Assembly: GCA_028693395.1 (NCBI GenBank)
Contig: JAQUVJ010000002.1
Coordinates: forward strand, 1 to 63,753
DNA: 63,753 nt
Origin: Candidatus Nanoarchaeia archaeon
GTDB lineage: Archaea > Nanobdellota > Nanobdellia > Woesearchaeales > JAQUVJ01
Reading direction: 5' to 3'
The notes below the pieces were generated by a model. That model worked only from the letters and a program-made list of their open reading frames with translations. It was not told where the DNA came from and made no database searches. Shown piece by piece: positions 8,270 through 22,827 of this stretch. Every line of letters starts with the position of its first letter. Within the stretch, counting starts at the first letter, position 1. Made by a program: the position numbers and the translations under genes.

Positions 8270-9391
8270 TTAATGATTAATAAGTGATTGACAAAATTTA
8301 TACATATAAGATAATCTATTATGATAATTACCTTTTACTATTTCCATTTTCGGATGAGCAGTAAAATCTCTAATATTGAAATTTTGATAATGTTCCAATA
8401 ATACTCCATCTAATTCATCCCGATAATCTTCATGTCTTCTTAGTCCATCACTCACCCATGGAACGCCCTCAAAAGAAAGGAAAAATCTATAATCATACAA
8501 ATCTTTATAATACGCATCATATATTGAATTAAAAAGATTCAATTCGGAGTCGGATATTTCATAAATATCATTTTCATTTTTATACAATCTATAATAGTAA
8601 TAAGTAACTACAATATCGGTATCAAAAAAACACAATCTATTGCAAGTTTTCAATGCATGGTCATTCGCTTCTATTTGCAATCTGATTATATTAAAATAAT
8701 CTTCATCGGTAATATATCTTTCATCATTTACATTTTGTTCTACATATATCCGACCCATTTCTTCGGCCCAAGATGTATGGAATATTTTAGCCAACATTTT
8801 TACCAGAGTAGTTTTTCCTGTTGATTCTGTACCAGTAATAAGAATCTTTTTTGCAAAGTGTTTTCTAGCTGACCCGCAAATATAGTCCCAATATTGCAAA
8901 GGATTTTTTCTTATTTGTGTAGCTGAAATAGGATATCTTGTCATAGAATAATCAAAATATTTAATATCGTACTCTGGAAAATAAGATTTATAAAATTCAA
9001 CATCATTCAATTCTCCAGTAAAAATAGTAAATTTAATATCCGTTGTATAAGGAGTACAATAATCATAAATAAAACTATTCAAGCATTTACTCCATTGAGG
9101 CCACCCAATGGGATATTCTGGCATATCATTAGGTTCCTTCATAATATGAATTTTTATATTATTAAAACCTTTTAATTCAGTTTTCAGCCAACGCAATCTT
9201 GTATCAGCGGAAATATATTTGATATTTGCTTCTTTACATAATCTCATATCTAACTGAATATTGTCGCAAATGATAATATTCAATTGATCACACTGAGAGT
9301 ATGCATTAAAAATATGAGTAAGATGTCCTCGATGTAAAGGAAAAAATTTTCCGACTAATATACCAACATGAAAATCATTATTGTTCATCAT
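8270..9391 (-). CDS. nadR: NadR-like bifunctional NMN adenylyltransferase / ribosylnicotinamide kinase (no HTH domain)
   Basis: GKFFPLHRGHL (HxGH), ISATQIRKNP (ISxxxxR), P-loop ITGTESTGKTTL with NadR-like context. Confidence 0.8.
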   Translation of the reverse strand: MMNNNDFHVGILVGKFFPLHRGHLTHIFNAYSQCDQLNIIICDNIQLDMRLCKEANIKYISADTRLRWLKTELKGFNNIKIHIMKEPNDMPEYPIGWPQWSKCLNSFIYDYCTPYTTDIKFTIFTGELNDVEFYKSYFPEYDIKYFDYSMTRYPISATQIRKNPLQYWDYICGSARKHFAKKILITGTESTGKTTLVKMLAKIFHTSWAEEMGRIYVEQNVNDERYITDEDYFNIIRLQIEANDHALKTCNRLCFFDTDIVVTYYYYRLYKNENDIYEISDSELNLFNSIYDAYYKDLYDYRFFLSFEGVPWVSDGLRRHEDYRDELDGVLLEHYQNFNIRDFTAHPKMEIVKGNYHNRLSYMYKFCQSLINH

Positions 9392-10250
9392 ATATTCTCC
9401 CTTTTTTTAAAATAGTCCATTCTCTTTTTTCTTTTGAATCTTCCGTCCATTTATAATAGCCATAAAAACTATTAATAAGAAAGCCAAGCCACATAAATAC
9501 AATCGGAAGTACCCAAGTAACAGAATTTCTATCATTTAATACAACCAGAATCCACATGAAAATAGTTATAATATTTGTAAGAATCCAAAATATCCATTGT
9601 TGTGAGTATGCCAACGTCATTAGAATCTGACCAATAATCTGTAATACTTCAGTAGATGAATCCAGAATTGGACCAAGTAATGTTATTCCAGTTATTGCTG
9701 TTATACTGGAATATATTGATTCATTTCTTTGCATAATATGAACAAACCAATGATCTACCATAGAAAGAAATATTCCGAATCCAATCAATGCTAGAATAGA
9801 AGTAATTGTAATAATAAATATACCTTGTTTTGTCAATTTTCTAGGCTTGATATATATTCTAGAAAATTTATCCATATGATATTTTTTCCATACAACCCAA
9901 CCAATAAATTGAAATGGCAGAAAAAAGAACCAATTTAAAATCCAATCACCATAATATCCGCTATACCAAGATATTGCTCCATACATAATAGCATTAATTA
10001 TACCCCAGTAGTAATTAGTAATATTTTCTTTTGCTACTAATACTACACATACTATTCCTGTTATAGCAGCTACGGGTGATATAATCCAATTCAATATAAC
10101 ATCAAAAAATGTATCATAAGGAGTTATATATGAAAAATAAAAAGTGGATCCCATAATAAGAGTAGTAATGAAGCCAACCAATATTTTTTCAAATACATTC
10201 CAAGAACTAAAATCCAAAGATTTTTGAATATATTGTATCATTATTTTCAT
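9378..10250 (-). CDS. pnuC: PnuC-like nicotinamide riboside transporter
   Basis: 290 aa, multiple TM helices rich in W/Y (SWYSGYYGDWILNWFFF); overlaps nadR-like gene by 14 nt. Confidence 0.7.
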   Translation of the reverse strand: MKIMIQYIQKSLDFSSWNVFEKILVGFITTLIMGSTFYFSYITPYDTFFDVILNWIISPVAAITGIVCVVLVAKENITNYYWGIINAIMYGAISWYSGYYGDWILNWFFFLPFQFIGWVVWKKYHMDKFSRIYIKPRKLTKQGIFIITITSILALIGFGIFLSMVDHWFVHIMQRNESIYSSITAITGITLLGPILDSSTEVLQIIGQILMTLAYSQQWIFWILTNIITIFMWILVVLNDRNSVTWVLPIVFMWLGFLINSFYGYYKWTEDSKEKREWTILKKGRIYDEQ

Positions 10251-10280: not shown

Positions 10281-10309
10281 ATTATACACTATGTCATTAA
10301 ATAAGTCAA
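10281..10309 (-). promoter_or_regulatory. sigma70-type promoter for pnuC-nadR
   Basis: Minus strand TTGACT-17 nt-TATAAT. Confidence 0.65.
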
Positions 10310-10364
10310 TGGACAATATTAAACTAGCAATTCAAACAATATAAGAATTTTTAGAATATGATTA

Positions 10365-10436
10365 AAAACTATTCACCACCCGGGCCGACAGTACGAGAAT
10401 TATCTGATTATTAAAAAACTATTCACCACCCGGGCC
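10365..10436 (+). repeat. tandem 50-bp duplication carrying two CCACCCGGGCC boxes
   Basis: AAAAACTATTCACCACCCGGGCC at 10365-10386 and 10415-10436. Confidence 0.85.
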
Positions 10437-10786
10437 AGCTTGGATTTTTATACAGAATATTCAGATAATAAATTACAATCTATTTATGAAAATGATGGCG
10501 ACGGAAAGACCAAGGTATGGATTGAAACATCGTTGGAGATAGCTCTAGAATGGCTTGTATCACATTATCCGTATCGATAAGGTAGTTCGATATGCTTCAC
10601 TGGTCAAGAACGATTCTGGGTCATTTTAGAGGTATGCGACTGAAAATTCCATAAAATCATTTCTATCATCCTTATAAAGCTCATGTCGTCGGATATAGCT
10701 CTAAAATCAACGCAGAGCTATATCCAGATGAAAGGTAATCTGATACGTCCTAATACAAGAAAATCATTCTACAAGTGTTTTAGAAT
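10437..10786. other. G+C-enriched ORF-free element bracketed by inverted CCACCCGGGCC boxes
   Basis: Boxes 10426-10436 and 10787-10797 (inverted); internal GGATATAGCTCT/AGAGCTATATCC 12-bp inverted repeat (10691-10725) plus third copy GGAGATAGCTCT (10545-10556). Confidence 0.5.
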
Positions 10787-10802
10787 GGCCCGGGTGGATA
10801 TA

Positions 10803-10842
10803 TGAAAATAAGAAGAGAGCGGCTTTTAGGGCCGCTCTCTTC
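10803..10842 (-). terminator. intrinsic terminator of cassette 1
   Basis: 12-bp stem GAAGAGAGCGGC/GCCGCTCTCTTC then T-rich run on minus strand. Confidence 0.8.
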
Positions 10843-10853
10843 ATTCATATTAG

Positions 10854-11459
10854 TTAGTTTATTGAGAAAAGAATGTCAAATCCGAATCCTTTCAACATGT
10901 CCAGAATCTTAGTGTTGGCGGGAGCATACCAAGCCTTGTTTTCAGGACTATACTTTCTTATCGGAAGAGTTTTGACATTCTGAAGAGTCTCCCTGTCAAA
11001 AGAAAACTCTATTTTCAGATAATTCATGTCATCTTTAGCTGACCGAACAAGAGATACCTTTTTGAATACTTCTTTGACAACAGTCTTTCCATCCTCAACA
11101 ACCTTTTTGGAAAAATCAATTTCAGCAAAATTCTTTATAATGCTCTTGGGTATCCACTGATCGACTTTGACGGCTTCGACCTCATCCCTGATCGTCTTGA
11201 CTTGATCTTCGGTAAGAGTTTCAAGAATGACATCCCTTGTTACCCATGAACCCAAGCATTCCGGCCCAATTCCCAGAAGTTTTGATCCTGGGTGAGTGAG
11301 TTTCCGGCCGCATCTAGCACAACGACCATCTTTGGGAATGATACCATTTCCTTTGACATAAACGGCCTTGTCAGATTCTTTCGTTATAACGCCGTTGATG
11401 TTATAAGGTACGTTCATTGCCCGTGCGATCCTCGTGCTGATAACAAAAATTTGATTCAT
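10854..11459 (-). CDS. DUF6011-motif protein with HARP-like C-terminal region
   Basis: True start ATG 11459 after AAGGGGGA SD (track start 11549 translates the leader); CARCGRKLTHPGSKLLGIGPEC; C-terminal KIEFSFDRETLQNVKTLPIRKYSPENKAWYAP. Confidence 0.6.
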   Translation of the reverse strand: MNQIFVISTRIARAMNVPYNINGVITKESDKAVYVKGNGIIPKDGRCARCGRKLTHPGSKLLGIGPECLGSWVTRDVILETLTEDQVKTIRDEVEAVKVDQWIPKSIIKNFAEIDFSKKVVEDGKTVVKEVFKKVSLVRSAKDDMNYLKIEFSFDRETLQNVKTLPIRKYSPENKAWYAPANTKILDMLKGFGFDILFSIN

Positions 11460-11520
11460 ATTAAAATCCCCCTTGGTAGATTGATGTTTGGTCGGGATTG
11501 CTCTTCCAACCAACAAGGAT

Positions 11521-11549
11521 ATTCTATCACGTATCAATCGATCCGTCAA
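11521..11549 (-). promoter_or_regulatory. cassette promoter P1
   Basis: TTGACG-17 nt-TGA-TAGAAT; member of 15-copy family. Confidence 0.75.
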
Positions 11550-11635
11550 TAGGGAAATATGATGTTTATATTTTCAGATAACTATCAACCACCCGGGCCA
11601 ACTCGGATTTTTATATAGAATATTCAGATAATAAA

Positions 11636-11785
11636 TTACTTTTTCCCAAGTACATCTTTATTGAATTTAATAGCTTTTTTAGCAAGATCATAAGCGGCGG
11701 AGGTATTTTCACCAATTTCCATAAAAAAACTATGCATTCCCACTATGAACATAAACCATAGAACATATGTAATATATTCTCGCAT
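11636..11785 (-). CDS. small membrane protein, 49 aa
   Basis: GAAAGGTGAT RBS; MREYITYVLWFMFIVGMHSFF...; below track cutoff. Confidence 0.45.
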   Translation of the reverse strand: MREYITYVLWFMFIVGMHSFFMEIGENTSAAYDLAKKAIKFNKDVLGKK

Positions 11786-11852
11786 TAGATATCACCTTTC
11801 TAATTTTCATAATATAAAGAGGGGAGTTTTCAAGACTCACCTCTATCGGATT

Positions 11853-12167
11853 TTAGACTATGAAAGTAATTCTCAGAAATTTCAGTTTGGCTCCATCAGG
11901 AAGAGTAGTGCTACCCTCGGCCAGTCTTGGACCGGAATATTGAACCACGAAAAGAGTGTCGTCCATGTCCAGTGTTACCGACTCCCTGTTGAACGTGAAT
12001 CCTTCCCAGGAAGAGGCCAGAGAATCGGCCAGTTCCTTATGACCGATAACACTCTTCGGGCTATTTTTTATAATCTCTTCAAGAGTAACAGTTTCAACAC
12101 TCATGCCGTAGTTGTTTTCCGAAATCATATTGAGAGAAAAAGCGTTGGAAACGAGAGTCTTTGCCAT
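11853..12167 (-). CDS. DUF1874 / AcrIII-1-like viral ring nuclease (candidate anti-type III CRISPR)
   Basis: True start ATG 12167 after AAGGAGGA SD; MAKTLVSNAFSLNM..., VIGHKE (catalytic His context), VVQYSGPRLAEG match STIV B116 / SIRV1 gp29 family. Confidence 0.8.
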   Translation of the reverse strand: MAKTLVSNAFSLNMISENNYGMSVETVTLEEIIKNSPKSVIGHKELADSLASSWEGFTFNRESVTLDMDDTLFVVQYSGPRLAEGSTTLPDGAKLKFLRITFIV

Positions 12168-12237
12168 TGTGAAATCCTCCTTAGAAATTGTATTTTGTCG
12201 GTCGGGTCGCCTGTTCGCTCTTCCAACCAACAAGGAT

Positions 12238-12266
12238 ATTCTATCACGTATCAATCAATCCGTCAA
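12238..12266 (-). promoter_or_regulatory. cassette promoter P2
   Basis: TTGACG-17 nt-TGA-TAGAAT. Confidence 0.75.
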
Positions 12267-12482
12267 GCATTAAAATCGATTTTTTTGATGATTAAATTTT
12301 CAAACAACTCAACATCCTTTCAATTATATAGTCTGCATATCGGTGAAAAAATATTTTATAGATAATTCTGAATAATCTAACCATCGCCGCCCCGGGCCAA
12401 CTCGGATTTTTTTGCAGAATATTCGTATAGATTGAAAGCAATAAAAAAGACAACTCCTTTTAAGAGTTGTCTTTATATTCTA

Positions 12483-12647
12483 TTATATTTCAGTCAATTT
12501 CAGAATATGATCTTCCGGGTTCTCGTTCGGTGCAGTATATTTCAACCATTCAAAAAAGTCTATATCATCGCCGTCGATAATTCCGGTAATAACTTCGTCC
12601 ATATAAAGATCCAGAAAGGGGCCAAACTTTATTATAATCGTTGTCAT
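12483..12647 (-). CDS. acidic mini-protein, 54 aa
   Basis: AAGGGGGA SD; MTTIIIKFGPFLDLYMDEVITGIIDGDDIDFFEWLKYTAPNENPEDHILKLTEI; terminator AAGACAACTC/GAGTTGTCTT follows. Confidence 0.6.
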   Translation of the reverse strand: MTTIIIKFGPFLDLYMDEVITGIIDGDDIDFFEWLKYTAPNENPEDHILKLTEI

Positions 12648-12708
12648 TTAAAAATCCCCCTTAGATATTAGATGTTTGGTCGGGATCGCTCTTCCAACCA
12701 ACAAGGAT

Positions 12709-12737
12709 ATTCTATCACGTATCAATCAATCCGTCAA
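12709..12737 (-). promoter_or_regulatory. cassette promoter P3
   Basis: TTGACG-17 nt-TGA-TAGAAT. Confidence 0.75.
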
Positions 12738-12830
12738 GCATTAAAATCGATTTTTTCTATGATTAAATAGTTAGATAATAGCTAAAATCGTTATTGAAGT
12801 AACCTCGGAAAAAACCTATTTTAGAACACA

Positions 12831-13020
12831 ACCACGTAAAGTCTTGCAAACACTGGATTCTTAGATTTCTTGTGAATAAGATAACATATTTATAAAGCCT
12901 TGCAAACACTAGCTTTTTTATACACGATCACTAATCTCCTATGTGTCGCAACGAAAAATGGATAAATGGTATAAAGCTACACTTGCAATCTAAAACCGCG
13001 ACAGGATTGAAATTAGGAAT
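12831..13020 (+). ncRNA. hairpin element copy a (candidate structured RNA)
   Basis: Two CGTAAAGYCTTGCAAACACTRG motifs then GATCACTAATCTCC...GCGACAGG...AATTAGG hairpin; paralog of 15542-15780 and 17815-18055. Confidence 0.4.
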
Positions 13021-13192
13021 TGTATATATTATTATAAACAATGCGGCCAGGGTGGATAAAATTGTATATGCTTTTAAAACAATTATGATTATATGAAAAT
13101 GATTATAATTGATATATATTCTAAAAAAACGATTATCAACCACCCGGGCCAGCTTGGATTTTTTCACAGAATATTCATACAAATTGAAGATA

Positions 13193-13240
13193 ATAAAAAA
13201 AAGACTGTTTATTTTTCTCGAAATAAACAGTCTGAAAAAA
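13193..13240. terminator. bidirectional intrinsic terminator
   Basis: AGACTGTTTAT/ATAAACAGTCT 11-bp stem between A8 and A-run. Confidence 0.75.
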
Positions 13241-13243
13241 CTA

Positions 13244-13417
13244 TTAAATTGCATATGTCATTTTTTCGGAAATAAGATAACTTGTATTAATACCTGGATA
13301 ATAAAATTCCATCCATTCCAAAAAACTAAAAATAGTCTCATTATCTTCTACTTCTTGAAGCCAATCATGATAATAATAACTATCTTCAAGAATCTGATAT
13401 GAAGAAGAGCTAGGCAT
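13244..13417 (-). CDS. acidic aromatic-rich mini-protein, 57 aa
   Basis: GGGGGG SD overlapping end of upstream ORF; MPSSSSYQILEDSYYYHDWLQEVEDNETIFSFLEWMEFYYPG... Confidence 0.55.
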   Translation of the reverse strand: MPSSSSYQILEDSYYYHDWLQEVEDNETIFSFLEWMEFYYPGINTSYLISEKMTYAI

Positions 13418-13418
13418 A

Positions 13419-13727
13419 TTAAAAACCCCCCTTATAAAGATTAGTCAGATTATTTTCTACAATTCTCTTGAAACGTCTGGCGAGATTACGATTCGCCATA
13501 TAACGACGTTTCACGGGATTGACAGACTTCTCCAATTTTTCTCTCTTTTTGCCCGTCCAATCCTCAGGGCGAACAAACTCACGACGGACCTGATGATTAG
13601 TGAGTTTCTTGTAATAAGAATTGTCAGAAATATCGTCAGTATTCCGAACAATTTTTTTTGTATCAGCTTTCACTTCGATGCCCATTCCGTCCGTAAAAAT
13701 ATAGCTCTTTCGATAAGTATTTGCCAT
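13419..13727 (-). CDS. basic hypothetical protein, 102 aa
   Basis: AAGGAGGG SD, first gene of P4 cassette. Confidence 0.7.
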   Translation of the reverse strand: MANTYRKSYIFTDGMGIEVKADTKKIVRNTDDISDNSYYKKLTNHQVRREFVRPEDWTGKKREKLEKSVNPVKRRYMANRNLARRFKRIVENNLTNLYKGGF

Positions 13728-13799
13728 ATTAAAAACCCTCCTTGAAAGATAGATGTTTGGTCGGGAACGCTTGACTTCGCTCTTCCAACCAACAAGGAT

Positions 13800-13828
13800 A
13801 TTCTACCATGCTTTATCGAATCCGTCAA
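13800..13828 (-). promoter_or_regulatory. cassette promoter P4
   Basis: TTGACG-17 nt-TGG-TAGAAT. Confidence 0.75.
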
Positions 13829-13910
13829 TAGGGAAATATGATGATTAAATTTTCAGATAATTTATATTCTGGATATTATATTCTGTATTCTGTATTCTGT
13901 ATACACAAAC

Positions 13911-14123
13911 GCGGAATAAATAAATTTTTCTTTTTAGGAGTATTGTGCGGAAAATATAAATTTTTATTAGATGGAATATTGTGCGGAAAATAAATTTTTA
14001 TTAGATGGATATTATGCAAAATAAATGAATTTTTATTAGATGGATAATTTATGCGAAATAAATGAATTTTTATTAGATGGGTATTTATGCGAAAAATATA
14101 AATTTTCGTGTTAGAGGTATGAT
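13911..14123 (+). repeat. six tandem 33-37-bp iteron-like repeats
   Basis: GCGRAAAATAAATGAATTTTTATTAGATGGATAWTTAT units head to tail, no spacers. Confidence 0.85.
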
Positions 14124-14139
14124 TAAAAAGATTCTAATC

Positions 14140-14194
14140 TTTTGCGTAACGTAGTGAAGCAAAAGAGTTTTTGCGTAACGCAGTGAAGCAAAAA
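14140..14194 (+). repeat. two tandem hairpin repeats
   Basis: TTTTGCGTAACGYAGTGAAGCAAAA twice (TTTTGC/GCAAAA stems). Confidence 0.8.
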
Positions 14195-14217
14195 CCTGAT
14201 CGGCTAAAATATTTTTG

Positions 14218-14354
14218 GTCGGCGCAATATATTTTCCTCCAAACTCTTTTTTAACGACTTATATTTTTTCAAACTATTTATAATTATTCAAACTATTTAT
14301 AATTTTTAAAGGCTAAGTACTTTTAACTTTATCATCTTTTTCTATTTTTACTAA
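14218..14354 (+). repeat. long direct repeat, copy 1
   Basis: GTCGGCGCAATATATTTTCCTCCAAACTCTTTTTTAACGACTTATATTTTTT... about 90 percent identical to 14580-14696. Confidence 0.85.
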
Positions 14355-14431
14355 TTCGTCAATTCGTAATATAGTTCTTAGGAATCATCTTTTTCGGTTA
14401 AAAGATGAGTCTTAGGAATCATCTTTTAGAC

Positions 14432-14461
14432 TTGACAAACTATACTATAGTATGATATAAT
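14432..14461 (+). promoter_or_regulatory. near-consensus sigma70 promoter with no downstream ORF
   Basis: TTGACA (14432-14437)-18 nt-TGA-TATAAT (14456-14461), points into ORF-free repeat DNA. Confidence 0.6.
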
Positions 14462-14579
14462 AATTAAAAAAAAACTTTTATTTTAGGAATATTTTTAGAA
14501 ATGCATTCAGAAGGTATGATATGAAATTTTTATAATCGTTCTCAAAATATAAAAATTGCGTCGACCAAAAATTTATCCA

Positions 14580-14696
14580 GTCGGCGCAATATATTTTCCT
14601 CCAAACTCTTTTTTAACGACTTATATTTTTTAAACTATTTATAAAATTTTAAAGGCAAGTACTTTTAACTTTATCATCTTTTTCTATTTTCACTAA
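14580..14696 (+). repeat. long direct repeat, copy 2
   Basis: Paralog of 14218-14354; followed by AATTCCTAAGA/TCTTAGGAATT 11-bp hairpin. Confidence 0.85.
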
Positions 14697-14773
14697 ATTA
14701 TACATAATTCCTAAGATTCATTTTTATATGAGTCTTAGGAATTATTTTATGAACAAAAATATTTCAGAAAATT

Positions 14774-14932
14774 TTAGCTATTATCAATCATATCTTGAGT
14801 ATAAAATGTCTTGCTAGTTTCATAATCACATTCCATACAAAATACTTTGACTGTTATGGAATTTTCTTCAGGATTAGCACAATAATCAAAATCTGTTTCT
14901 TTTCCGCATACAGGACAAAAAACACTATTCAC
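14774..14932 (-). CDS. zinc-ribbon mini-protein, 52 aa
   Basis: GAAAGGAG RBS, GTG start; CPVC...CMEC. Confidence 0.5.
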   Translation of the reverse strand: MNSVFCPVCGKETDFDYCANPEENSITVKVFCMECDYETSKTFYTQDMIDNS

Positions 14933-14956
14933 TACACAACACTCCTTTCAAAATAT

Positions 14957-14988
14957 AAAGAGGGAATTTTTTAGATAATTCCCTCTTT
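14957..14988 (-). terminator. intrinsic terminator
   Basis: AAAGAGGGAATT/AATTCCCTCTTT 12-bp stem. Confidence 0.7.
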
Positions 14989-14999
14989 CATATAAATTT

Positions 15000-15368
15000 C
15001 TATTCCTTGTTCAGTTCAATAGAATTGTAAGTATTATTTATGTCATTCAGATATCGAAGAATATTTGTTGCTTCTTTTGTATTCTTCTTTGTATTAGCAT
15101 CCAAAATAACTATTGGTATCATAATATCATTCTGAGCAACAATTCCCATGTCCCAGAGAGTATAAAGAGTAGTCAATTCCGAACCGTAATTCATTGACCA
15201 CAAAACCCCTTCTATTTCCGAAAAATGAAATACGACTGGTGAGTTCTTGTTGTCCAAAACAAATCTTTCAAACTTCTTGTTAATTTTGCAATCCAAATCC
15301 GTTTTAATGTCACCCTTTTTAATCATACTAGCTAAAGTACCGATGTTTAGAACCTTCGTCTTCATCAT
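15000..15368 (-). CDS. hypothetical protein, 122 aa
   Basis: AAGGGGGA SD 9 nt before ATG; P5 cassette. Confidence 0.7.
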   Translation of the reverse strand: MMKTKVLNIGTLASMIKKGDIKTDLDCKINKKFERFVLDNKNSPVVFHFSEIEGVLWSMNYGSELTTLYTLWDMGIVAQNDIMIPIVILDANTKKNTKEATNILRYLNDINNTYNSIELNKE

Positions 15369-15435
15369 CTGTGAAAATCCCCCTTATAAAGATATTTTGT
15401 CAGTCGGATCGTTTACTCTTCCCTCCGACTGCTAT

Positions 15436-15464
15436 ATATTATCACGGTTTTTTCAATCCGTCAA
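15436..15464 (-). promoter_or_regulatory. cassette promoter P5 (variant)
   Basis: TTGACG-17 nt-TGA-TAATAT; leader hairpin CAGTCGGA/TCCGACTG. Confidence 0.7.
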
Positions 15465-15541
15465 GTAGTATTTTTCATGATTAAATATTCTGATAAATAA
15501 AAACGTCGTATTGACCAAGGAAAATCGTTAATTTTTCAATG

Positions 15542-15780
15542 ACCACGTAAAGCCTTGCAAATACTGGGTTTTTATATTTCTTGTGAATGAAATATCAAAC
15601 TCGTAAACTGTTGCTACGACTACATTTTTTCTATACGATCACTAATCTCTTCTGTATCGGTCTGTTTTTCCATAAAACAGTATAACTGCACACGTCTAAA
15701 ATTTTCATTGCGACACAGAGGAGATTAGTAATGTTTAGACCGCTCTAACATTTATAAACTGTTGATATTACTGGATTTTT
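15542..15780 (+). ncRNA. hairpin element copy b (candidate structured RNA)
   Basis: 15-bp stem ACTAATCTCTTCTGT (15641-15655) / ACAGAGGAGATTAGT (15715-15729) with one U-G pair valid only on plus-strand RNA; flanked by three TTGCAA-type 22-mers. Confidence 0.45.
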
Positions 15781-15875
15781 CAAGTCGATAAATTCTAAAA
15801 AACATCATGCTAAAAAATCTCATTGACCCCCTGGCCTTCCCGAAGAATGCAGAATATTCCGTCATGTAGAATATA

Positions 15876-15912
15876 ATAAAAAAGACGGCTCTTTTATGGG
15901 AGTCGTCTTTAT
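15876..15912 (-). terminator. intrinsic terminator
   Basis: AAGACGGCTC/GAGTCGTCTT stem with flanking A/T runs. Confidence 0.65.
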
Positions 15913-15920
15913 ATTTTTAA

Positions 15921-16325
15921 TTAAAGAGTAATTTCAGCCATTTCGGGAATTTCAACCCTTACCTTCCTCGGTCTGCCTCTAGGTCTCTTTTCAGCCACCG
16001 GAGCATTCGGATCCACAGGCTTCCTCGGTCTACCTCTAGGTCTCTTCTCAGCCACAGGTGCATTCGGATCAATCATCTTCTTTGGTCTCCCCCTTCCTCT
16101 CTTTTCTACTACAAGAAACCCGCTATCAACCAATGTATTGACAAAATCAATTACATTCGGCATATTCAGAGTTGTAGCAATATTCTCAACAACTACCCCC
16201 TCGTCCTTTGGAACACTGAAAAATACCGCCTTGAAATTCTCGTCCTTATTAAAACGAGCATTTTGAATAAGATTGAAAGTATTCGCCTTATTTCCTCTCT
16301 TCACTACTGCCTTTACGTTCATCAT
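15921..16325 (-). CDS. AT-hook repeat DNA-binding protein
   Basis: Start ATG 16325 after AAGGAGG; three RGRP AT-hook cores (KRGRGRPKK, KRPRGRPRK twice) in tandem PVAEKRPRGRPRKxVDPNA repeats. Confidence 0.7.
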   Translation of the reverse strand: MMNVKAVVKRGNKANTFNLIQNARFNKDENFKAVFFSVPKDEGVVVENIATTLNMPNVIDFVNTLVDSGFLVVEKRGRGRPKKMIDPNAPVAEKRPRGRPRKPVDPNAPVAEKRPRGRPRKVRVEIPEMAEITL

Positions 16326-16400
16326 CACCATTACCTCCTTGAATTTTAATTTCTTTTCAATTTCTTTATGATTATATCTTATCATAAAGAAATTCGTTTG

Positions 16401-16718
16401 TCAAGCTCTTTTTTCAAACTTTTTAATCAATCCATCCAAAAAGCTATTTTCTCTAACTATTTTGGAGATTGCTGTTTCAATATGAGAATCCAACAATCCC
16501 TCCGCATAAATATCGTTGTAAAATTCTCTTTCCGATGTTACCTGATAATATTTGTTTACGGCCCAGAAAATATCCCAAGTGATTCTTTTTCTGAAATTCT
16601 GAAAATCCTTGGAATTAAAAACTTTTTCAATATGAGCCGCTGTTTCTGATGGATGTTTTCCTACAAAATCATTGATCTCATTTTTAATCTTCTCATAAAG
16701 TGTCTTGCTCATTTTCAT
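16401..16718 (-). CDS. hypothetical protein, 105 aa
   Basis: GAGGGGGA SD; first gene of P6 cassette. Confidence 0.7.
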   Translation of the reverse strand: MKMSKTLYEKIKNEINDFVGKHPSETAAHIEKVFNSKDFQNFRKRITWDIFWAVNKYYQVTSEREFYNDIYAEGLLDSHIETAISKIVRENSFLDGLIKKFEKRA

Positions 16719-16770
16719 TCAGAAATCCCCCTCTATTTTGTTTTCAAGTGTCTTCCGAACCAACAAGGAT

Positions 16771-16799
16771 ATTCTACCATGCTTCAATCAATCCGTCAA
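16771..16799 (-). promoter_or_regulatory. cassette promoter P6
   Basis: TTGACG-17 nt-TGG-TAGAAT. Confidence 0.75.
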
Positions 16800-16904
16800 T
16801 AGGTTATTTTCGATTTTCTTGTAGATTAAATTTTCAAACAACTTCCCACCACCCGGGCCAGACGTACAAAAATTTTTTCAATATTCAAATTATCAGAATA
16901 TAAG

Positions 16905-16941
16905 AAAAAAGCGACTCCCTTAAAAGAGTCGCTTTTTTTTC
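16905..16941. terminator. intrinsic terminator
   Basis: AGCGACTC/GAGTCGCT stem between A6 and T8. Confidence 0.75.
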
Positions 16942-16944
16942 TAT

Positions 16945-17298
16945 TTAAAATTCTCTTCTCAAATAATAAGTGCAACCAAAACCTTCACCCAATGTTTCAT
17001 CATCATTATAAGGATACAGAATACCTCTTACTTCCGTTATTCTTGCCGTAACTGTCCCCCAACAGGTTACATTCTGAGTTTTTTTACTATTCAATTTTCG
17101 AGAAGTGATTTTATACTGAAAAGCTGGATAGATGATATTTTTTGCGTTGTATCTAATTTCAAATTTAGTTCCAACAAAAGCTTGATCAACAAATACATTC
17201 GATTCTGTATTCCACTCATCACCCTTTACAGAATCGATCATCCAAACTTCCCCGGCGAACTCAACGATGGGTTTTTTGCTCATATCGATTTTTTTCAT
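16945..17298 (-). CDS. hypothetical protein, 117 aa
   Basis: True start ATG 17298 after AAGGGGGA SD; track start 17373 translates the conserved leader. Confidence 0.7.
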   Translation of the reverse strand: MKKIDMSKKPIVEFAGEVWMIDSVKGDEWNTESNVFVDQAFVGTKFEIRYNAKNIIYPAFQYKITSRKLNSKKTQNVTCWGTVTARITEVRGILYPYNDDETLGEGFGCTYYLRREF

Positions 17299-17363
17299 TA
17301 TAAAATCCCCCTTGAAAATAGATGTTTTGGTCGGGATCGCTCTCTCTCTCAACCAACAAGGAT

Positions 17364-17392
17364 ATTCTACCATAAAAAAATCAATACGTCAA
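17364..17392 (-). promoter_or_regulatory. cassette promoter P7
   Basis: TTGACG-17 nt-TGG-TAGAAT. Confidence 0.75.
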
Positions 17393-17449
17393 TAAGAAAA
17401 TATGATGTTTATATTTTCAAATAACTCCCCACCATAATAAACAGTACAA

Positions 17450-17737
17450 AAATTATCAAACTATTCAAAATAAAAATAATATATTAAAAAAACAAGTTAA
17501 TTGAAAAAACCCAAAATTTTTGAATACGTTAATTATACCTAAAATAGAAAAAACTATGAAAGTTAATTTAAAAAAACCTTTTTTTTTTGGTAAATTGTCA
17601 GATAATTTAGATTAGTCGGAAGATATTATTAAAAACAAAATTTTATCAATTATTTCATTATTTCATTAATTCATCATAAAAATATAAATTCTATAAAGAT
17701 TCAGATTATAGGATATATATTTTTTTGTCTTTAAATT
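17450..17737 (+). repeat. long dispersed direct repeat, copy 1
   Basis: Blocks AAACTATTCAAAATAAAAATAATATATTAAAAAAACAAGTTAATTGAAAAAACCC and TTCTATAAAGATTCAGATTATAGGATATATATTTTTTTGTCTTTAAATTC recur at 18810-19003. Confidence 0.8.
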
Positions 17738-17814
17738 CGGATAACTATCTCGTTCATTATACCATTTCAGATTTCAAAATTTCCCCTAGAAAAACCTATT
17801 TCATAATCTAATCT

Positions 17815-18055
17815 CGTAAAGCCTTGCAAACACTAGCTTTCTCAACTTCTCATTTTAAAAAATCCAACCTTGTAAAACCTTGCTATCACTAGCTTTTTTG
17901 ACCACGATCACTAATCTCTTCTGTACGGGGTTTTTAATACACATATCCATACAATCTTGCGTCTTCATTTCTAAAAACGCGACACAGAGCAAAATAGTAA
18001 TCGTAAGCCTTGTCTAACATTTATAAAACCTTGCAATTACTAGGTTTTTTATTTT
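17815..18055 (+). ncRNA. hairpin element copy c (candidate structured RNA)
   Basis: Same layout as copies a and b; arms 17910-17924 / 17984-17998 (12 of 15 pairs) plus inner CGGGGTTTTTA/TAAAAACGCG pairing. Confidence 0.4.
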
Positions 18056-18375
18056 TGATATTCCAGAAAAAAGATATATAAAAACTTTTACACCCGGGCC
18101 AAACGTACAAAAATTTTTTTAATATTCAGACTATCAAAATATAATAAAAAATGACCCTTTAAATTTTTCTTCTGAAAGAGCAGGGTCAGACTCTTCCAGC
18201 AACACTCATTTTTATAAATACTATGAATACCAAAATGAGAAAATATTCATAGCTTGAAACGATTCTTAAAAATTAAAATATTTAGATAATTGGAAATGCA
18301 GAATCAACATCTCCAATTACCTGTCTTTTTATAATACCTCATAAACAATAAAAGACAAAATGTTTACGGGATAAA

Positions 18376-18422
18376 TTAAAAAATTTTAATACGAGTAGAA
18401 AGGAGGATAACTACTCGTATTA
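18376..18422 (-). terminator. terminator downstream of tRNA-Leu
   Basis: 12-bp stem TAATACGAGTAG/CTACTCGTATTA then T-run on minus strand; second 13-bp hairpin at 18428-18461. Confidence 0.7.
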
Positions 18423-18547
18423 AAAGTGAAATGATTATTATTTCGAGCTAATAATCATTTCAATGGAACAAGAAATACCGTTGCGTTGTGCTTGTATCGC
18501 CGCATGGGGTCGGCAAAATTAAACTTTCTGATATTAAATTTTTTAAA

Positions 18548-18634
18548 TGGTGCGAGAGGGGGGACTCGAACCCCCAATCCCCTCCGGGCGAAGCATTTTA
18601 AGTGCTTTGCGTATCCCAATTCCGCCACTCTCGC
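18548..18634 (-). tRNA. tRNA-Leu (anticodon UAA), class II, CCA encoded
   Basis: Acceptor GCGAGAG/CTCTCGC, U8, D-arm GCGGAATTGGGATACGC, anticodon stem AAGCA/TGCTT with loop CTTAAAA, long variable arm, T-arm GGGGG-TTCGAGT-CCCCC, A-CCA end. Confidence 0.9.
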
Positions 18635-18681
18635 ACTTTTCTCTTTATTCACTTGTCAAGGTCGTTTCGCTCAACATGTAT

Positions 18682-18710
18682 ATAATACCATAGGATCAAT
18701 AAGATGTCAA
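18682..18710 (-). promoter_or_regulatory. promoter for tRNA-Leu
   Basis: TTGACA-17 nt-TGG-TATTAT, about 40 nt upstream of the tRNA 5' end. Confidence 0.65.
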
Positions 18711-18809
18711 TAACTAAAATCAATGTTTAAATTATCAAAAAACTTACTTACCCTTCAAACCATCCCGAAGAATGCAGAATATTCCGTCAACCACCCAGGC
18801 CATCGCCCA

Positions 18810-19003
18810 GAAATTATTAAACTATTCAAAATAAAAATAATATATTAAAAAACAAGTTAATTGAAAAAACCCTAAATTTCTTGAAAAATTGAATTGAATG
18901 GAAAATGACATAAAAATATAAATTGAAACAAAAAATATAAAATTTCATATTTATTCTATAAAGATTCAGATTATAGGATATATATTTTTTTGTCTTTAAA
19001 TTC
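18810..19003 (+). repeat. long dispersed direct repeat, copy 2
   Basis: Paralog of 17450-17737; bracketed by boxes at 18791-18801 and 19011-19021. Confidence 0.8.
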
Positions 19004-19055
19004 CCCTCATCCACCCGGGCCAACTAAATATAAATTTCAGATAATTTTCTATATA

Positions 19056-19094
19056 ATAAAAATGCGCTATCCCTCAAAGATAGCGCATTTTTTA
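19056..19094. terminator. intrinsic terminator
   Basis: ATGCGCTATC/GATAGCGCAT stem between A5 and T6. Confidence 0.75.
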
Positions 19095-19099
19095 GATTA

Positions 19100-19945
19100 T
19101 TAAACTATTTCATAATCCCATTTTTCCCAGTTATTTATATTGTACAATTTCCCTTTCCAATTAAACTTTATTTTATTATCCATATCAACTACAACAAATG
19201 TATCAGCTTTCTCTCCTGCAATCGTTACATAACCATTCAATATTCTAATTCTTTCACCATGATTCAATTTTCTCTTTTTTGTATTTTGTTTCATGGAAGT
19301 ACTGGAATATCCAGTCGTTTCAACCTTTTTTCTCCAATTATATGAACGCTCTTTTTCCTCATATGAATAATTATCAGCCAAATCCAAATTATCCAACTTA
19401 TTAAACATTTCCATCGGCATTCGTATTAAATGTTCAAATGTCAACGTATCCATATAATCAGAATACTCAGGAATCAAAGTAATATCAGCATTATGAATAG
19501 TTTTTTTAATTTTCATTTTCATCGCTGCTGCAACACGATTTCCCATAACATCCAAATACAAGATATAACCTTCACGACCACCCTTATGAATAAATATATC
19601 AATTATAATATTTTTTCCAAACAAATCCATTATAGCCTCTTTCAATGTCTTTCCCCTATAACTAACATTAAAACGAGAATTCAACCTATCATAAAACGTT
19701 TCAATAATTACTTCCCTTTTCTCTTCTCTCTTGGTACTAGTAGCTTTTTCATATCCCCTATAGCTACCAGGCATATATCCAGATACCAAATACTTTTTCA
19801 TTATACCATACTCTTCATTGAGCATCTTCATCATCTCGTCATTCCCACCACGATCAGGATGATGTATTCTTACTAATCTCCTATACTCATTCTTCAATAC
19901 AGAATCATCTTTGATCACAGAAGTATTAAAAAACTGCATCATCAT
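19100..19945 (-). CDS. J-domain (DnaJ-like) protein, 281 aa
   Basis: N-terminal YRRLVRIHHPDRGGNDEMMKMLNEEY with HPD tripeptide; rest unrecognised. Confidence 0.75.
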   Translation of the reverse strand: MMMQFFNTSVIKDDSVLKNEYRRLVRIHHPDRGGNDEMMKMLNEEYGIMKKYLVSGYMPGSYRGYEKATSTKREEKREVIIETFYDRLNSRFNVSYRGKTLKEAIMDLFGKNIIIDIFIHKGGREGYILYLDVMGNRVAAAMKMKIKKTIHNADITLIPEYSDYMDTLTFEHLIRMPMEMFNKLDNLDLADNYSYEEKERSYNWRKKVETTGYSSTSMKQNTKKRKLNHGERIRILNGYVTIAGEKADTFVVVDMDNKIKFNWKGKLYNINNWEKWDYEIV

Positions 19946-20178
19946 CGACCCCCCACAAGAATAAACTGATTCACTCTTTTCATCGGAATGACTGAACTAT
20001 TAAACTGTTCAATACTCATCCCAATTATCTCATCATCACTAACTACAATTACCTGATTGTTTTTATCATTGCTATATGTAAAACGAAATGACACCCTATC
20101 CGACCCCATTATCCCACGAAAAACTCCCCTAATTCTCGGATTCTTCGGATCAGTCTTTTTCATCTCATACTTCATCAT
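19942..20178 (-). CDS. hypothetical protein, 78 aa
   Basis: True start ATG 20178 after AGAGGAG; stop overlaps J-domain gene start (ATGA). Confidence 0.6.
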   Translation of the reverse strand: MMKYEMKKTDPKNPRIRGVFRGIMGSDRVSFRFTYSNDKNNQVIVVSDDEIIGMSIEQFNSSVIPMKRVNQFILVGGR

Positions 20179-20207
20179 CTCATCTCCTCTCATCAACCAA
20201 CAAGGAT

Positions 20208-20236
20208 ATTCTATCATATTAAAATCAATCCGTCAA
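20208..20236 (-). promoter_or_regulatory. cassette promoter P8
   Basis: TTGACG-17 nt-TGA-TAGAAT; leader truncated (no hairpin). Confidence 0.75.
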
Positions 20237-20272
20237 TAAGAAAATATGATGTTTATATTTTCAGATAACTTA

Positions 20273-20479
20273 AAAATGAACTTTTCCCTGATAGGTACTT
20301 AAAACTTTTTCCATTTGATTACTTTTCCCTGATAGGTACTTAAAACTTTTTCCAGCTTATAAACTATTCAAAATATCCAAAATTAAAGAAACCATTGCAA
20401 TTACCAGCTTTATCAAAATTTTACAACCCTTCTGAAAATAAAATGAACTTTTCCCTGATAGGTACTTATAAACTTTTTT
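20273..20479. repeat. three copies of a 33-40-nt CRISPR-repeat-like unit
   Basis: ACTTTTCCCTGATAGGTACTTAAAACTTTTTCC at 20280-20312, 20321-20353, 20447-20478; gaps 8 nt and about 93 nt. Confidence 0.8.
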
Positions 20480-20497
20480 AAAAATTTATAAATTCTT

Positions 20498-20629
20498 TGC
20501 AACAGTGTTGCATTTTAATATAAATTCTTTGCAACAGTGTTGCATTTTAATATAAATTTATATTAAAAAATAATATAAAACTCATAGACCGTTGCAAACA
20601 CTATATAAAAGTTTTGCAACAGTGTTGCA
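20498..20629. promoter_or_regulatory. three palindromic operator-like sites
   Basis: TGCAACAGTGTTGCA at 20498-20512, 20530-20544, 20615-20629. Confidence 0.6.
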
Positions 20630-20724
20630 TTAAAAGTCGGTGTGTATACAGAATACTTTACACAAAATTATCCACAAAAATATATTACACTATATGTAGC
20701 ATTAAAAAAAATATATTACACTAA

Positions 20725-21000
20725 TCCTTAGAGCATTATAGAGCTTAGAGCATCGTATAGAGCTATCCTTAGAGCATCGTATAGAGCTATCCTTAGAGCT
20801 TAGAGCTATCCTTAGAGCATCGTATAGAGCATTATAGAGCTTAGAGCATCGTATAGAGCATTATAGAGCTTAGAGCTATCCTTAGAGCATTGTATAGAGC
20901 TTAGAGCTATCCTTAGAGCATTGTATAGAGCTATCCTTAGAGTTATTTTTAGAGTATTGTATAAGGACGTATAGAGTATTGTATAGAGTATAAGATATAG
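20725..21000 (+). repeat. mosaic minisatellite built on TAGAGC
   Basis: 20 exact TAGAGC in about 215 bp, spaced 7/10/12 bp in units TTAGAGC, ATTATAGAGC, ATCGTATAGAGC, TATCCTTAGAGC; decays to TAGAG toward 21000. Confidence 0.9.
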
Positions 21001-21220
21001 AATTATTTAAAGAATTAGGTATATGTATTAAATTGTATGGATATTGATTATTGCTGTATTTGTTTAATTTATGGGAAATATTTGTTTTATATGGGAATTA
21101 GGTATATGTATTAAATTGTGTGGGGAGTTTTGTATACAATATAACCGTTGGAAACACTGATAAAATGCTGATAAAATGAAAATGGAATTTATTTTGAAAA
21201 AGTTTTTGTTTATATGAAAA

Positions 21221-21245
21221 AGAGCGGGTTTTGGGGACCCGCTCT
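21221..21245. terminator. intrinsic terminator (family copy 1 of 3)
   Basis: AGAGCGGGT/ACCCGCTCT stem, A5/T5 flanks; same hairpin at 22727-22751 and 25994-26018. Confidence 0.8.
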
Positions 21246-21291
21246 TTTTCTATCGTATATTATTTAGATTTAGATTTCAAAATTCTCTCCT

Positions 21292-21465
21292 TTATATTGA
21301 TGAACTGATTTCTTGTTTTACTTTTTCGTTAGAGTAGAACTGGCTCTTTATTTCTATATGATTGCAATTTTTATTCATACATATTTTTTTGTATGTAAAC
21401 TTATCTACTTTCTCCAGAATGGAATAGTCCATATTACTTTGACATGATGGGCATCTAAAAATCAT
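21292..21465 (-). CDS. zinc-ribbon mini-protein, 57 aa
   Basis: AAGGAGGAG RBS; MIFRCPSCQSN...CMNKNC; distal gene of hicA-like cassette. Confidence 0.55.
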   Translation of the reverse strand: MIFRCPSCQSNMDYSILEKVDKFTYKKICMNKNCNHIEIKSQFYSNEKVKQEISSSI

Positions 21466-21556
21466 TATTCTATCTCCTCCTTATATGTAAAACGATAAAA
21501 TCTATAAACTCTTCCAATGACATTTCCTGTATTTGTTTCTTAGTCATAATCATATC

Positions 21557-21778
21557 TTATTTATAGACCGCTTCAAACTCCTTCATATTAATTCCATTTT
21601 CTTTGAGAATCCGGCGAAGAAGTGTAGTCTTTACTTCGCCGCTTCTGGGAAATACAACCATTTTTGATGGATCGTATGTTTTTTTCATTTTTTGATGTCC
21701 GGTCCCTCCATTGTCGACATATCCGAGTTTTTCAAAAGCTTTTTTTACTCTGTCGCCGCGATAATCAAAACGTGCCAT
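21557..21778 (-). CDS. hicA: HicA-like mRNA interferase toxin, copy 1 (no HicB seen)
   Basis: 73 aa; KLGY..NGGTGHQKM...VVFPRSGEVKTTLLRRILKENGI fits HicA pattern (G.GSxH...P.H...l...l+.Ilkq.Gi). Confidence 0.7.
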   Translation of the reverse strand: MARFDYRGDRVKKAFEKLGYVDNGGTGHQKMKKTYDPSKMVVFPRSGEVKTTLLRRILKENGINMKEFEAVYK

Positions 21779-21833
21779 CTATATTACCCCCTCAAGATTT
21801 TATGTGTTGGTCGTTCTATCAACCAACAAGGAT

Positions 21834-21862
21834 AGTATATCACACTCTCGTCAATCCGTCAA
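21834..21862 (-). promoter_or_regulatory. cassette promoter P9
   Basis: TTGACG-17 nt-TGA-TATACT. Confidence 0.75.
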
Positions 21863-21967
21863 GAGCTTTTCTAAAGAATTTATTTTCAAAAAACTTTTCT
21901 TGTTTATACACTCATCATCATCAATTATATAGACTGTATATCGGTGAAAAAAAGTTATTTAATTATT

Positions 21968-22007
21968 GAAAAAGGGATGAATTTATTAAAAACTCATCCC
22001 TTTTTTT
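21968..22007. terminator. intrinsic terminator
   Basis: AAAGGGATGA/TCATCCCTTT stem then T7. Confidence 0.75.
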
Positions 22008-22013
22008 GATTAT

Positions 22014-22604: not shown

Positions 22605-22659
22605 TGTATTACCTCCTCAAAATTTTTATATGCTGGCCGTTTTATCAACCAACAAGGAT

Positions 22660-22688
22660 AGTATATCACACTCTCGTCAATCCGTCAA
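22660..22688 (-). promoter_or_regulatory. cassette promoter P10
   Basis: TTGACG-17 nt-TGA-TATACT. Confidence 0.75.
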
Positions 22689-22726
22689 GAACTTTTTTAA
22701 AGAATTTATTTTCAGATAATAAAAAA

Positions 22727-22751
22727 AGAGCGGGTTTTGGGGACCTGCTCT
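22727..22751. terminator. intrinsic terminator (family copy 2)
   Basis: AGAGCGGGT/ACCTGCTCT stem with A7/T5 flanks. Confidence 0.75.
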
Positions 22752-22827
22752 TTTTCACTATTCTTTTACAAAATCTTCAACAATTTCACAATTAATTTGT
22801 TTAAATTGATTAAAATGTACCATAAAT

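Follow-up and report, generated by a model that had tools for sequence, protein, structure and literature searches.

What are the three long, similar noncoding segments that interrupt an array of small genes in an uncultivated large phage, and in what form do they act? The window examined here, by which we mean the whole 63,753-nucleotide (nt) stretch of contig JAQUVJ010000002.1 (GenBank assembly GCA_028693395.1), has a G+C content of about 26% and encodes proteins typical of a large lytic phage. A sequence-only reading of this DNA had noticed three hairpin-bearing elements, here called a (12831-13030), b (15542-15785), and c (17811-18055), and had proposed that they form a candidate family of phage noncoding RNAs whose members may be mobile or modular. 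We find that the elements are a conserved, unclassified noncoding module in a little-known phage. As to how this module works, the reading that we favor, with a probability of roughly 35%, is that it may be a cis-acting part of a recombining early-cassette array and may be recognized through its sequence.

The three copies were found where they had been placed, all in the plus orientation, by alignment, a repeat finder, BLAST, and a profile. The three-way alignment had a mean column identity of 74%, the repeat finder gave 79% and 70% identity across the first 118 nt, and BLAST comparisons of copy with copy gave E values of 3e-29 and 8e-18. The profile, which was built from the copies, detected exactly three of them in the 63.7-kb window and had no match in 1.8 Mb of related-phage loci. 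A 22-mer within the elements occurred five times with no more than 3 mismatches, and the 20-mer arm CGATCACTAATCTCTTCTGT occurred three times, with 0 occurrences expected in both cases.

All three copies lie in an array at approximately 10300 to 26000, where every gene is small and on the minus strand and has its own promoter/5' untranslated region (5'UTR) module, a strong ribosome-binding site, a long terminator, and a box (CCACCCGGGCC). The promoter/5'UTR module is of the sigma-70 type (TTGACGG-17-TAGAAT, then CCTTGTTGGTTGG...CCGACCAA) and is present in ten copies from 11507 to 25933; the terminators are strong, with 11 to 16 pairs in a terminator scan. Read along the plus strand, each promoter region is normally followed by the box, CCACCCGGGCCARCTYGG plus a T run, which gives a 5-bp G+C-rich hairpin and then a T run antisense to the genes (11593-11606, 12392-12405, and 13144-13157). 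The spacing of the box is constant relative to the terminator of the preceding gene and not relative to the next promoter. Each element was found to be inserted between a minus-strand cassette promoter and the next box. For element a, the promoter (TTGACG-17-TAGAAT, 12709-12737, minus strand) is on the low-coordinate side and the box (CCACCCGGGCCAGCTTGG then a T run, 13138-13163, a small plus-strand hairpin) is on the high-coordinate side. The equivalent minus-strand promoters in the promoter scan are at 15436-15464 for b and 17364-17392 for c, and the equivalent boxes start at approximately 15828 and 18091. These results bear out the earlier proposal of a paralogous noncoding family that occupies the same relative slot in three cassettes.

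The elements are composed of a repeated unit of approximately 26 bp, which we call R (TAAAgcC-TTGCWAnnACTRG-cTTTTT) and whose 13-bp core, itself asymmetric, is flanked by a short run of A on one side and a run of T on the other, together with a longer quasi-palindrome. Element b is the most regular copy and contains, in order, R1 (15546-15571), R2 (TTGCTACGACTAC, 15602-15627, then T6), a quasi-palindrome with 15 contiguous pairs (arms at 15635-15659 and 15711-15735), TCTAACATTTATAAA, and R3 (TTGATATTACTGG, 15753-15778, then T5). Element c has the same layout, with R units at 17815-17840, 17871-17896, and 18022-18047, the last two each followed by T6, and a palindrome with four mismatches (arms at 17904-17928 and 17980-18004). 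Element a begins with R1 (CGTAAAGTCTTGCAAACACTGGATTC, 12835-12860) and has a second unit (12891-12916, then T6) and a decayed quasi-palindrome (arms at 12924-12948 and 12999-13023). The third 22-mer is missing, and the left flank that usually belongs to it (AACATATTTATAAA) is found on the second; copy a is therefore truncated or rearranged. A looser R pattern likewise finds eight units inside the elements, all on the plus strand. The left arm of the quasi-palindrome contains the 15-mer ACGATCACTAATCTC, which is invariant in a, b, and c, and the right arm drifts among the copies; the conserved blocks besides this 15-mer and the R core are GCGACA, TAGTAAT, and TCTAACATTTATAAA. The shared layout described by the sequence-only reading held overall and needed correction in some details: ATTTCTTGTGAAT is present only in a and b, and the second 22-mer, said to be of the TTGCAA type throughout, is of the TTGCTA type in b and c. 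The limits also shift, since homology reaches approximately 25 nt to the left of the element starts first given (GGAAAAACC...) and, in c and a diverged relative described below, runs rightward as far as the box. The right edge of copy a also has a site resembling a plus-strand promoter (TTGAAA-17-TATTAT, 13007-13035). Behind it, part of the box is repeated in inverted orientation (GCGGCCAGGGTGG, 13043-13055) and could pair with the true box at 13140-13150.

We then compared the elements with those of related phages, which were recovered through a neighboring protein of 122 amino acids. One contig from sample SRR22315505 is the same phage (100% identical), two others, L119 and L120, are close strains (96 to 98% identical), and all three carry near-identical copies of element b. 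A more diverged relative, L121 (NCBI assembly GCA_036681025.1), encodes a homologue of the 122-residue protein that is 59% identical and has a fourth, diverged copy of the element at the orthologous site, upstream of the gene for this homologue. The L121 element is 73% identical to c, the closest window copy, and 67% identical to b. Its R1 matches c1 over all 26 nt, and it keeps GCGATCA, GCGACACA, TAGTAAT, and TAACAT.TATAAAC. R units with the core TTGCWAnnACTRG and A/T flanks number eight in the window elements and three in L121. Neutral DNA should not align between phages whose proteins are only 59% identical, and the alignment of the element in L121 therefore indicates that it is under constraint. 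In L119 and L120, the element has changed by 1.6%, less than the adjacent gene (3.0%) or the promoter/UTR (5.9%), all based on small counts.

The elements were found to be noncoding, as had been claimed: they have neither a conserved reading frame nor codon periodicity. Substitutions between c and L121 fall almost evenly on codon positions 1, 2, and 3 (17, 20, and 21, respectively), the micro-ORFs (open reading frames) on the minus strand are 13, 3, 18, and 63 codons long, and the 56-nt spacing places the R units in different reading frames. In L121, a gene caller predicts a 128-residue product across the element (1-387), where the frame is open for 128 codons; given the lack of a coding signal in the substitutions, this prediction is probably spurious. 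A protein-coding gene or pseudogene, which this open frame had brought into consideration, was ruled out by the codon-position test.

The earlier interpretation as a plus-strand hairpin RNA family is only partly supported, and its claim of a structured RNA is not. The features on which it had been built are real, including the 15-bp stem of copy b with its single T.G pair, the stem remnant TGTCGC/GCGACA retained in copy a, and the inner helix GTTTTTA/TAAAAAC of copy c. The long stem is intact in b only, however, and there is no covariation above that of shuffled alignments. Across a, b, c, and L121, 12 to 14 of the 24 pairs of the hairpin depart only by breaking and 1 is compensated, and the covariation score was reached by 83 of 500 shuffles on the plus strand and by 257 of 500 on the minus strand. 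The 15 contiguous pairs are found in b alone; in the register of these pair counts, there are four mismatches in c and six in L121. In the given register, 79% of cells are paired, versus 31 to 50% in slid registers, and the value is nearly the same on the minus strand (78%), where the structure is a mirror image. The T.G pair of copy b had been said to work only in a plus-strand RNA. It does favor the plus strand, yet two mismatches favor the minus strand, on which they become G.U pairs: a C.A mismatch common to b, c, and L121, and one of A.C that is found in b. The long hairpin is an inherited quasi-palindrome. For annotation in general, this means that an RNA should not be deduced from a perfect hairpin in a single paralogue if the stem has decayed in the others.

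The R units behave similarly. As 22-mers they fold at 0 to -6.8 kcal/mol, and their core is nearly invariant nonetheless. The elements thus retain blocks of primary sequence and are indifferent to pairing, which argues for recognition of the sequence by a protein. In the reading that we favor, the module would consist of two or three direct copies of R, one quasi-palindrome of approximately 25 bp with a conserved 15-mer left arm, and, in b and c, TCTAACATTTATAAA. These blocks would be read as sequence by a putative protein, encoded by the phage or its host, whose target would be duplex DNA or else the loop that a weak hairpin exposes. Upstream of the early promoters, the module would have a local role in regulation or insulation, or one like that of an origin. 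It would have been multiplied, truncated in the case of copy a, and moved between cassettes by homologous recombination, with the highly conserved promoter and box that flank every cassette serving as the recombining sequences, by analogy with the promoter-early stem-loop (PeSL) cassettes discussed below. Besides the retention of sequence blocks, this reading has in its favor the conservation of the element in L121, the noncoding pattern of substitutions, the cassette setting, and the R-like units found at 20395 and 20592 and in another phage contig, L154, described below.

Several findings weigh against this reading. The perfect 15-bp stem of copy b would be explained, in that copy, by selection for pairing, and with only four independent element sequences (a, b, c, and L121), little weight can be given to the absence of covariation. 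Throughout the noncoding DNA of L121, identity to the window is approximately 70 to 80%, and the element is therefore no more conserved than its noncoding surroundings. The spacings of the R units, 56 and 151 bp, show no helical-turn phasing, and the T run behind every R unit on the plus strand resembles the 3' end of a transcript. Finally, the flanks of the R units are partly compensated, with T8 always accompanied by A23, a G6-C19 pair in b2, and a U-A pair alternating with U.G at positions 7 and 18. Such compensation would also fit a hairpin of RNA or single-stranded DNA, and a weak hairpin that presents the core on either is therefore possible.

The first of the competing explanations, which we consider unlikely at about one-half the weight of the favored reading, takes these last points at face value. 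Each element would encode one or more small plus-strand RNAs, whose weak promoter would be divergent from that of the cassette, with the R hairpins as loops for recognition of a protein or target and the T runs as 3' ends. All R units and T runs are on the plus strand, the alternation of R and G at position 18 opposite T7 suits U-A or U.G pairs, the box behind the element is itself a plus-strand hairpin with a T run, and a consensus promoter at 14432-14461 points to plus-strand transcription elsewhere in the array. By eye, weak -35/-10-like hexamers can be seen 9 to 10 nt upstream of CGTAAAG in a (TTGAAG-17-TATTTT), c (TTCAAA-18-TATTTC), and L121 (GTGAAT-18-TAAAAT). Element b has no properly spaced pair at its left edge by the same inspection, however, and none of the sigma-70-type promoters listed by the promoter scan falls at the left edge of an element. 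On the plus strand, a and c fold no better than shuffled sequences (z = +0.21 and -0.56), whereas b has a z-score of -2.78. The R hairpins, at 0 to -7 kcal/mol, are far weaker than the phage's own terminators, and none was listed as an intrinsic terminator by the terminator scan. Predicted duplexes between the elements and the cassette 5'UTRs were no better than those of shuffled controls. At gathering thresholds, Rfam recognized only a tRNA-Leu (18551-18634) in the window; in E-value mode, no match in 12700-18500 overlapped any element core, one at an E value of 7 touched the right edge of c, and the remaining permissive matches were mostly on gene terminators or other spacer DNA. The elements therefore lie outside the known RNA classes, as had been supposed. 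Compared with phage and plasmid small RNAs that have a stem-loop and U tract, they share a hairpin followed by a T run on one strand and an intergenic position divergent from a strong promoter, but they have three hairpins per element, all far weaker than the terminators of this phage, and no credible promoter, covariation, or Rfam match.

Of similarly low probability is the view that the elements have no function and are decaying duplicates, that is, spacer DNA copied along with the cassettes by recombination, whose palindrome and repeats derive from one ancestor. This would account for the presence of only three copies, all within the array, for the truncation and rearrangement of copy a, for the decay of the stem in three of four copies, and for their occurrence in an array that is a patchwork of other repeated spacers. 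It does not sit well with the perfectly conserved blocks that L121 keeps despite adjacent proteins that are only approximately 59% identical, nor with the finding that in the near relatives the element changes less (1.6%) than the gene (3.0%) or the promoter/UTR (5.9%), small as those counts are.

A broader possibility, which we rate as quite doubtful, is that in R a short stem of variable sequence closes off a conserved loop or core, TTGCWAnnACTRG, and that R may be a previously undescribed recognition motif that unrelated phages, and possibly plasmids, have in common. A conserved protein would read it on RNA or single-stranded DNA, for instance as a nicking, priming, or RNA-binding site, and the elements would be arrays of the motif with a counterdefense or replication role in the first-expressed region. 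Inside the window, weak R-like units on the plus strand are also found at 20395 and 20592, within a repeat-rich noncoding stretch that contains a DnaA box. Outside it, a search of IMG/VR for a pattern of two R units returned mostly tandem repeats within coding sequences. The best case is L154 (IMGVR_UViG_3300033148_004867), an unrelated phage contig with 37% G+C, which has three R-like units (5934, 5985, and 6223) in a 1.3-kb noncoding region (5690-6980). With a scoring matrix built only from window and L121 units, one L154 unit that was not forced by the search pattern scored 28.2 bits, versus 21.7 bits for the best control in 10.7 Mb of block-shuffled sequence, and the same region has a 15/15 match to TCTAACATTTATAAA. 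It also contains three TGTTAGA-containing repeats (5764-5896) and a 35-nt inverted repeat (5958-5992 with 6193-6227), and in outline its layout resembles that of the window elements. Matches in L158, L123, L172, L150, Clostridioides difficile plasmids, and a Streptococcus phage were weaker or selected by the pattern and individually no better than chance. For L172 there was a single match, versus approximately 3 expected by chance. The matches in L146, L150, and L169 were judged coincidental; they come from a lambda-like phage of high G+C content and fall in noncoding DNA immediately preceding its terminase genes, a region that in L150 is probably the cos site.

DNA pattern searches of IMG/VR, JGI metagenomes, and GTDB genomes with parts of the module and of its array revealed no true relative. 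The invariant 15-mer had 37 matches in IMG/VR, all attributable to chance, with nothing similar outside the seed. The degenerate 22-mer had no match in IMG/VR or genomes; its three matches in JGI metagenomes were in unrelated contexts, and about as many would arise by chance. No 20- or 23-mer from the cassette promoter was found in IMG/VR or GTDB genomes, and a chimeric query of nine cassette proteins had no match. When window proteins were looked up by exact identity, the same phage from sample SRR22315505 was the only one to appear. Among sequenced phages, the closest are uncultivated contigs that reach several hundred kilobases, with 37 to 48% identity in one conserved protein. No locus of the PARP-like protein relatives (40 to 48% identity) has the element, and the relatives identified by PnuC (70 to 88% identity) have another gene order and lack the cassette array.

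Are the elements mobile? The earlier suggestion was that they may be mobile or modular, and of the two, modular fits better. Mobility found no support in terminal inverted repeats, in target duplications, in a transposase, or in copies outside the array. The end units R1 and R3 are direct and not inverted repeats, and no target duplication was seen at the element edges. Domain scans (Pfam and PHROGs) covering approximately 60 ORFs of the window detected no transposase, TnpA(Y1), TnpB, HUH nuclease, reverse transcriptase, or Cas protein. Phage and plasmid collections held no significant match, only borderline ones of approximately 40 nt (E = 0.07 to 0.3), which in the distant mode of BLAST were to C. 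difficile plasmids and a Streptococcus phage. A miniature inverted-repeat transposable element (MITE) or insertion sequence remnant was rejected on the grounds that the ends are direct, the homology extends past both claimed ends, and the three copies are all in one array; an IS200/IS605-derived element had no support from gene content, with neither TnpA(Y1) nor TnpB in the scanned ORFs. Likeness to MITEs and to PATEs, the nonautonomous derivatives of IS200/IS605, is limited to a similar size, hairpin-forming units near both ends on the same strand, and the absence of terminal inverted repeats. The elements differ from both in the lack of a transposase or TnpB, in the confinement of three copies to one slot of one array, in homology that continues past the supposed ends, and in having no conserved target or target duplication that we could see.

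These results bear on the further idea, which we regard as improbable, that the R units are hairpins recognized on single-stranded DNA through a conserved loop, either as nick or priming sites for an HUH-type nuclease or primase or as the ends of a PATE-like element. The repeats are direct and on one strand only, terminal inverted repeats are absent, the loop is conserved while the flanks are partly compensated, and hairpins with the same loop and different stems occur in L172, in L123, and in the L146 group. Some loop variants, TGATATTAC and GCTACGAC, may resemble known nick sites. Against this idea stand the absence of HUH, Y1, and TnpB proteins among the scanned ORFs, the lack of a significant phage or plasmid match, the presence of a third, internal repeat and of no copies outside the array, and the fact that the outside matches had been preselected by the search pattern and were near the number expected by chance.

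No more probable is the proposal that the element functions as an RNA of the minus strand, or that it is what remains of a mini-cassette on that strand. In this orientation, the conserved arm resembles a ribosome-binding site and start codon (AGGAGAT..GTG/ATG ATC); the other arm would sequester these, and a micro-ORF would come after them. The start codon is at the same position in all copies (GTG in the window and ATG in L121), the shared C.A mismatch turns into G.U, the L121 frame is open for 128 codons, and the minus strand has the better folding z-score in all three copies (-3.54 for b, -2.87 for c, and -0.30 for a). The ORFs that would follow are not conserved, though, with lengths of 13, 3, 18, and 63 codons, and they show no codon periodicity and have the R units in different frames; in addition, no minus-strand promoter was seen between the upstream terminator and the element, which is upstream and not downstream of the next cassette promoter. 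The remaining candidates can be dismissed: a retron msr/msd, an omega or bridge RNA, and a tracrRNA or CRISPR mini-array by the lack of reverse transcriptase, TnpB, or Cas genes among the ORFs scanned (the repeats within an element also differ considerably, as b1 does from b2, and the would-be spacer is conserved between a and b). IHF sites, MotA boxes, SPO1 late promoters, phi29 p4 sites, cre boxes, T7-like promoters, and type I toxin-antitoxin loci appeared to fit poorly and were dropped.

The setting of the module, in contrast to the module itself, resembles a known system. In T4-like phages, small genes of unknown function in a hyperplastic early region are bordered by PeSL cassettes, conserved sequences composed of promoter and terminator, for which shuffling by homologous recombination has been proposed (Arbiol et al. 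2010, PMC2839356; Comeau et al. 2014, PMC4122927). The array described here likewise has a repeated, conserved unit of promoter and stem-loop flanking small, variable early genes of unknown function; in both systems the regulatory sequences are more conserved than the genes that they flank, and we propose recombination between units here as well. By this analogy, the array resembles a PeSL-type architecture. Elements a, b, and c differ from PeSLs, which are terminator-plus-promoter units of approximately 50 to 100 nt, in being extra inserts of 190 to 245 nt between the promoter and the box/terminator parts, with repeats and a quasi-palindrome of their own in the orientation opposite to transcription. 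There is no sequence similarity between the two, and the phage, with its low G+C content and Gram-positive-type ribosome-binding sites, is unrelated. The module can also be compared with iteron-type origins and operator arrays such as the lambda origin, with which it shares direct repeats of approximately 20 bp with partial dyad symmetry, A/T tracts, an adjacent palindrome, and the recurrence of an R-like motif in the repeat-rich DnaA-box region at 20.3 to 21.3 kb. It differs from these in the 56- and 151-bp distances between its repeats, which are not tightly phased, and in the presence of three separate copies of the whole module within 5 kb. The elements contain no initiator gene and no DnaA box, the sole example of the latter being that at 20668-20676.

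If the module is a protein recognition site, as we favor, it would mark an unknown layer of control over early transcription, antisense insulation, or the start of replication, situated among tightly packed small early genes and beside counterdefense genes (ArdA, a Tad3-like protein, NAD salvage enzymes, and RNA ligases). It would also extend the picture of shuffled early-region cassettes, so far drawn from T4-like phages of Gram-negative hosts, to a distant low-G+C phage.

The genes of the array itself are small and mostly without annotation; an AT-hook protein is encoded at 15921-16325 and HicA at 21557-21778. Pfam/PHROGs-type domain scans identified the NAD salvage genes of the window as a NadR-like protein, PnuC, nicotinamide phosphoribosyltransferase (NAMPT), and NAD synthase, and further window proteins include a PARP-like enzyme, an ATP-dependent ligase, a UvsX-like recombinase, two RNA ligases, Dam methylase, ArdA, and a Tad3-like protein. 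Counterdefense and metabolic genes are grouped around the array (8270-10250, 25369-25923, 42735-43748, and 54020-59817) and comprise NadR-like, PnuC, ArdA, RNA ligase 2, the Tad3-like Thoeris inhibitor, an isochorismatase, a phosphoribosyltransferase-like protein, NAMPT, NAD synthase, and RNA ligase 1.

Several different segments recur among the spacers of the array and give them a patchwork structure. An A+T-rich segment is present at both 17447-17574 and 18808-18935 with 71% identity, and since it follows a box or degenerate box at both sites, the spacer that contains element c looks like two intergenic regions fused. Element c adjoins a minus-strand tRNA-Leu(UAA) cassette (18280-18710), in which the tRNA (18548-18634) has its own promoter (TTGACA-17-TATTAT, 18682-18710) and is followed by approximately 250 nt of structured noncoding sequence before terminator-like hairpins. 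Between elements a and b is a noncoding stretch of approximately 950 nt (13830-14770) with five tandem repeats of approximately 36 nt (13918-14122) and a 150-nt segment that is duplicated (14206-14354 and 14568-14696). It carries the perfect consensus plus-strand promoter mentioned above (TTGACA-18-TATAAT with a TG, 14432-14461); the part spanning this promoter (14192-14483) aligns to L121 at 73%, with the promoter hexamers preserved there, and the stretch may be a plus-strand noncoding transcription unit. Farther along the array, a repeat-rich noncoding region of approximately 1 kb (20260-21280) contains three copies of the palindrome TGCAACAGTGTTGCA (20498-20512, 20530-20544, and 20615-20629), three copies of ACTTTTCCCTGATAGGTACTTA, the DnaA box TTATCCACA at 20668-20676, and an array of tandem repeats of approximately 12 to 24 nt (20725-20943), and may be a replication origin.

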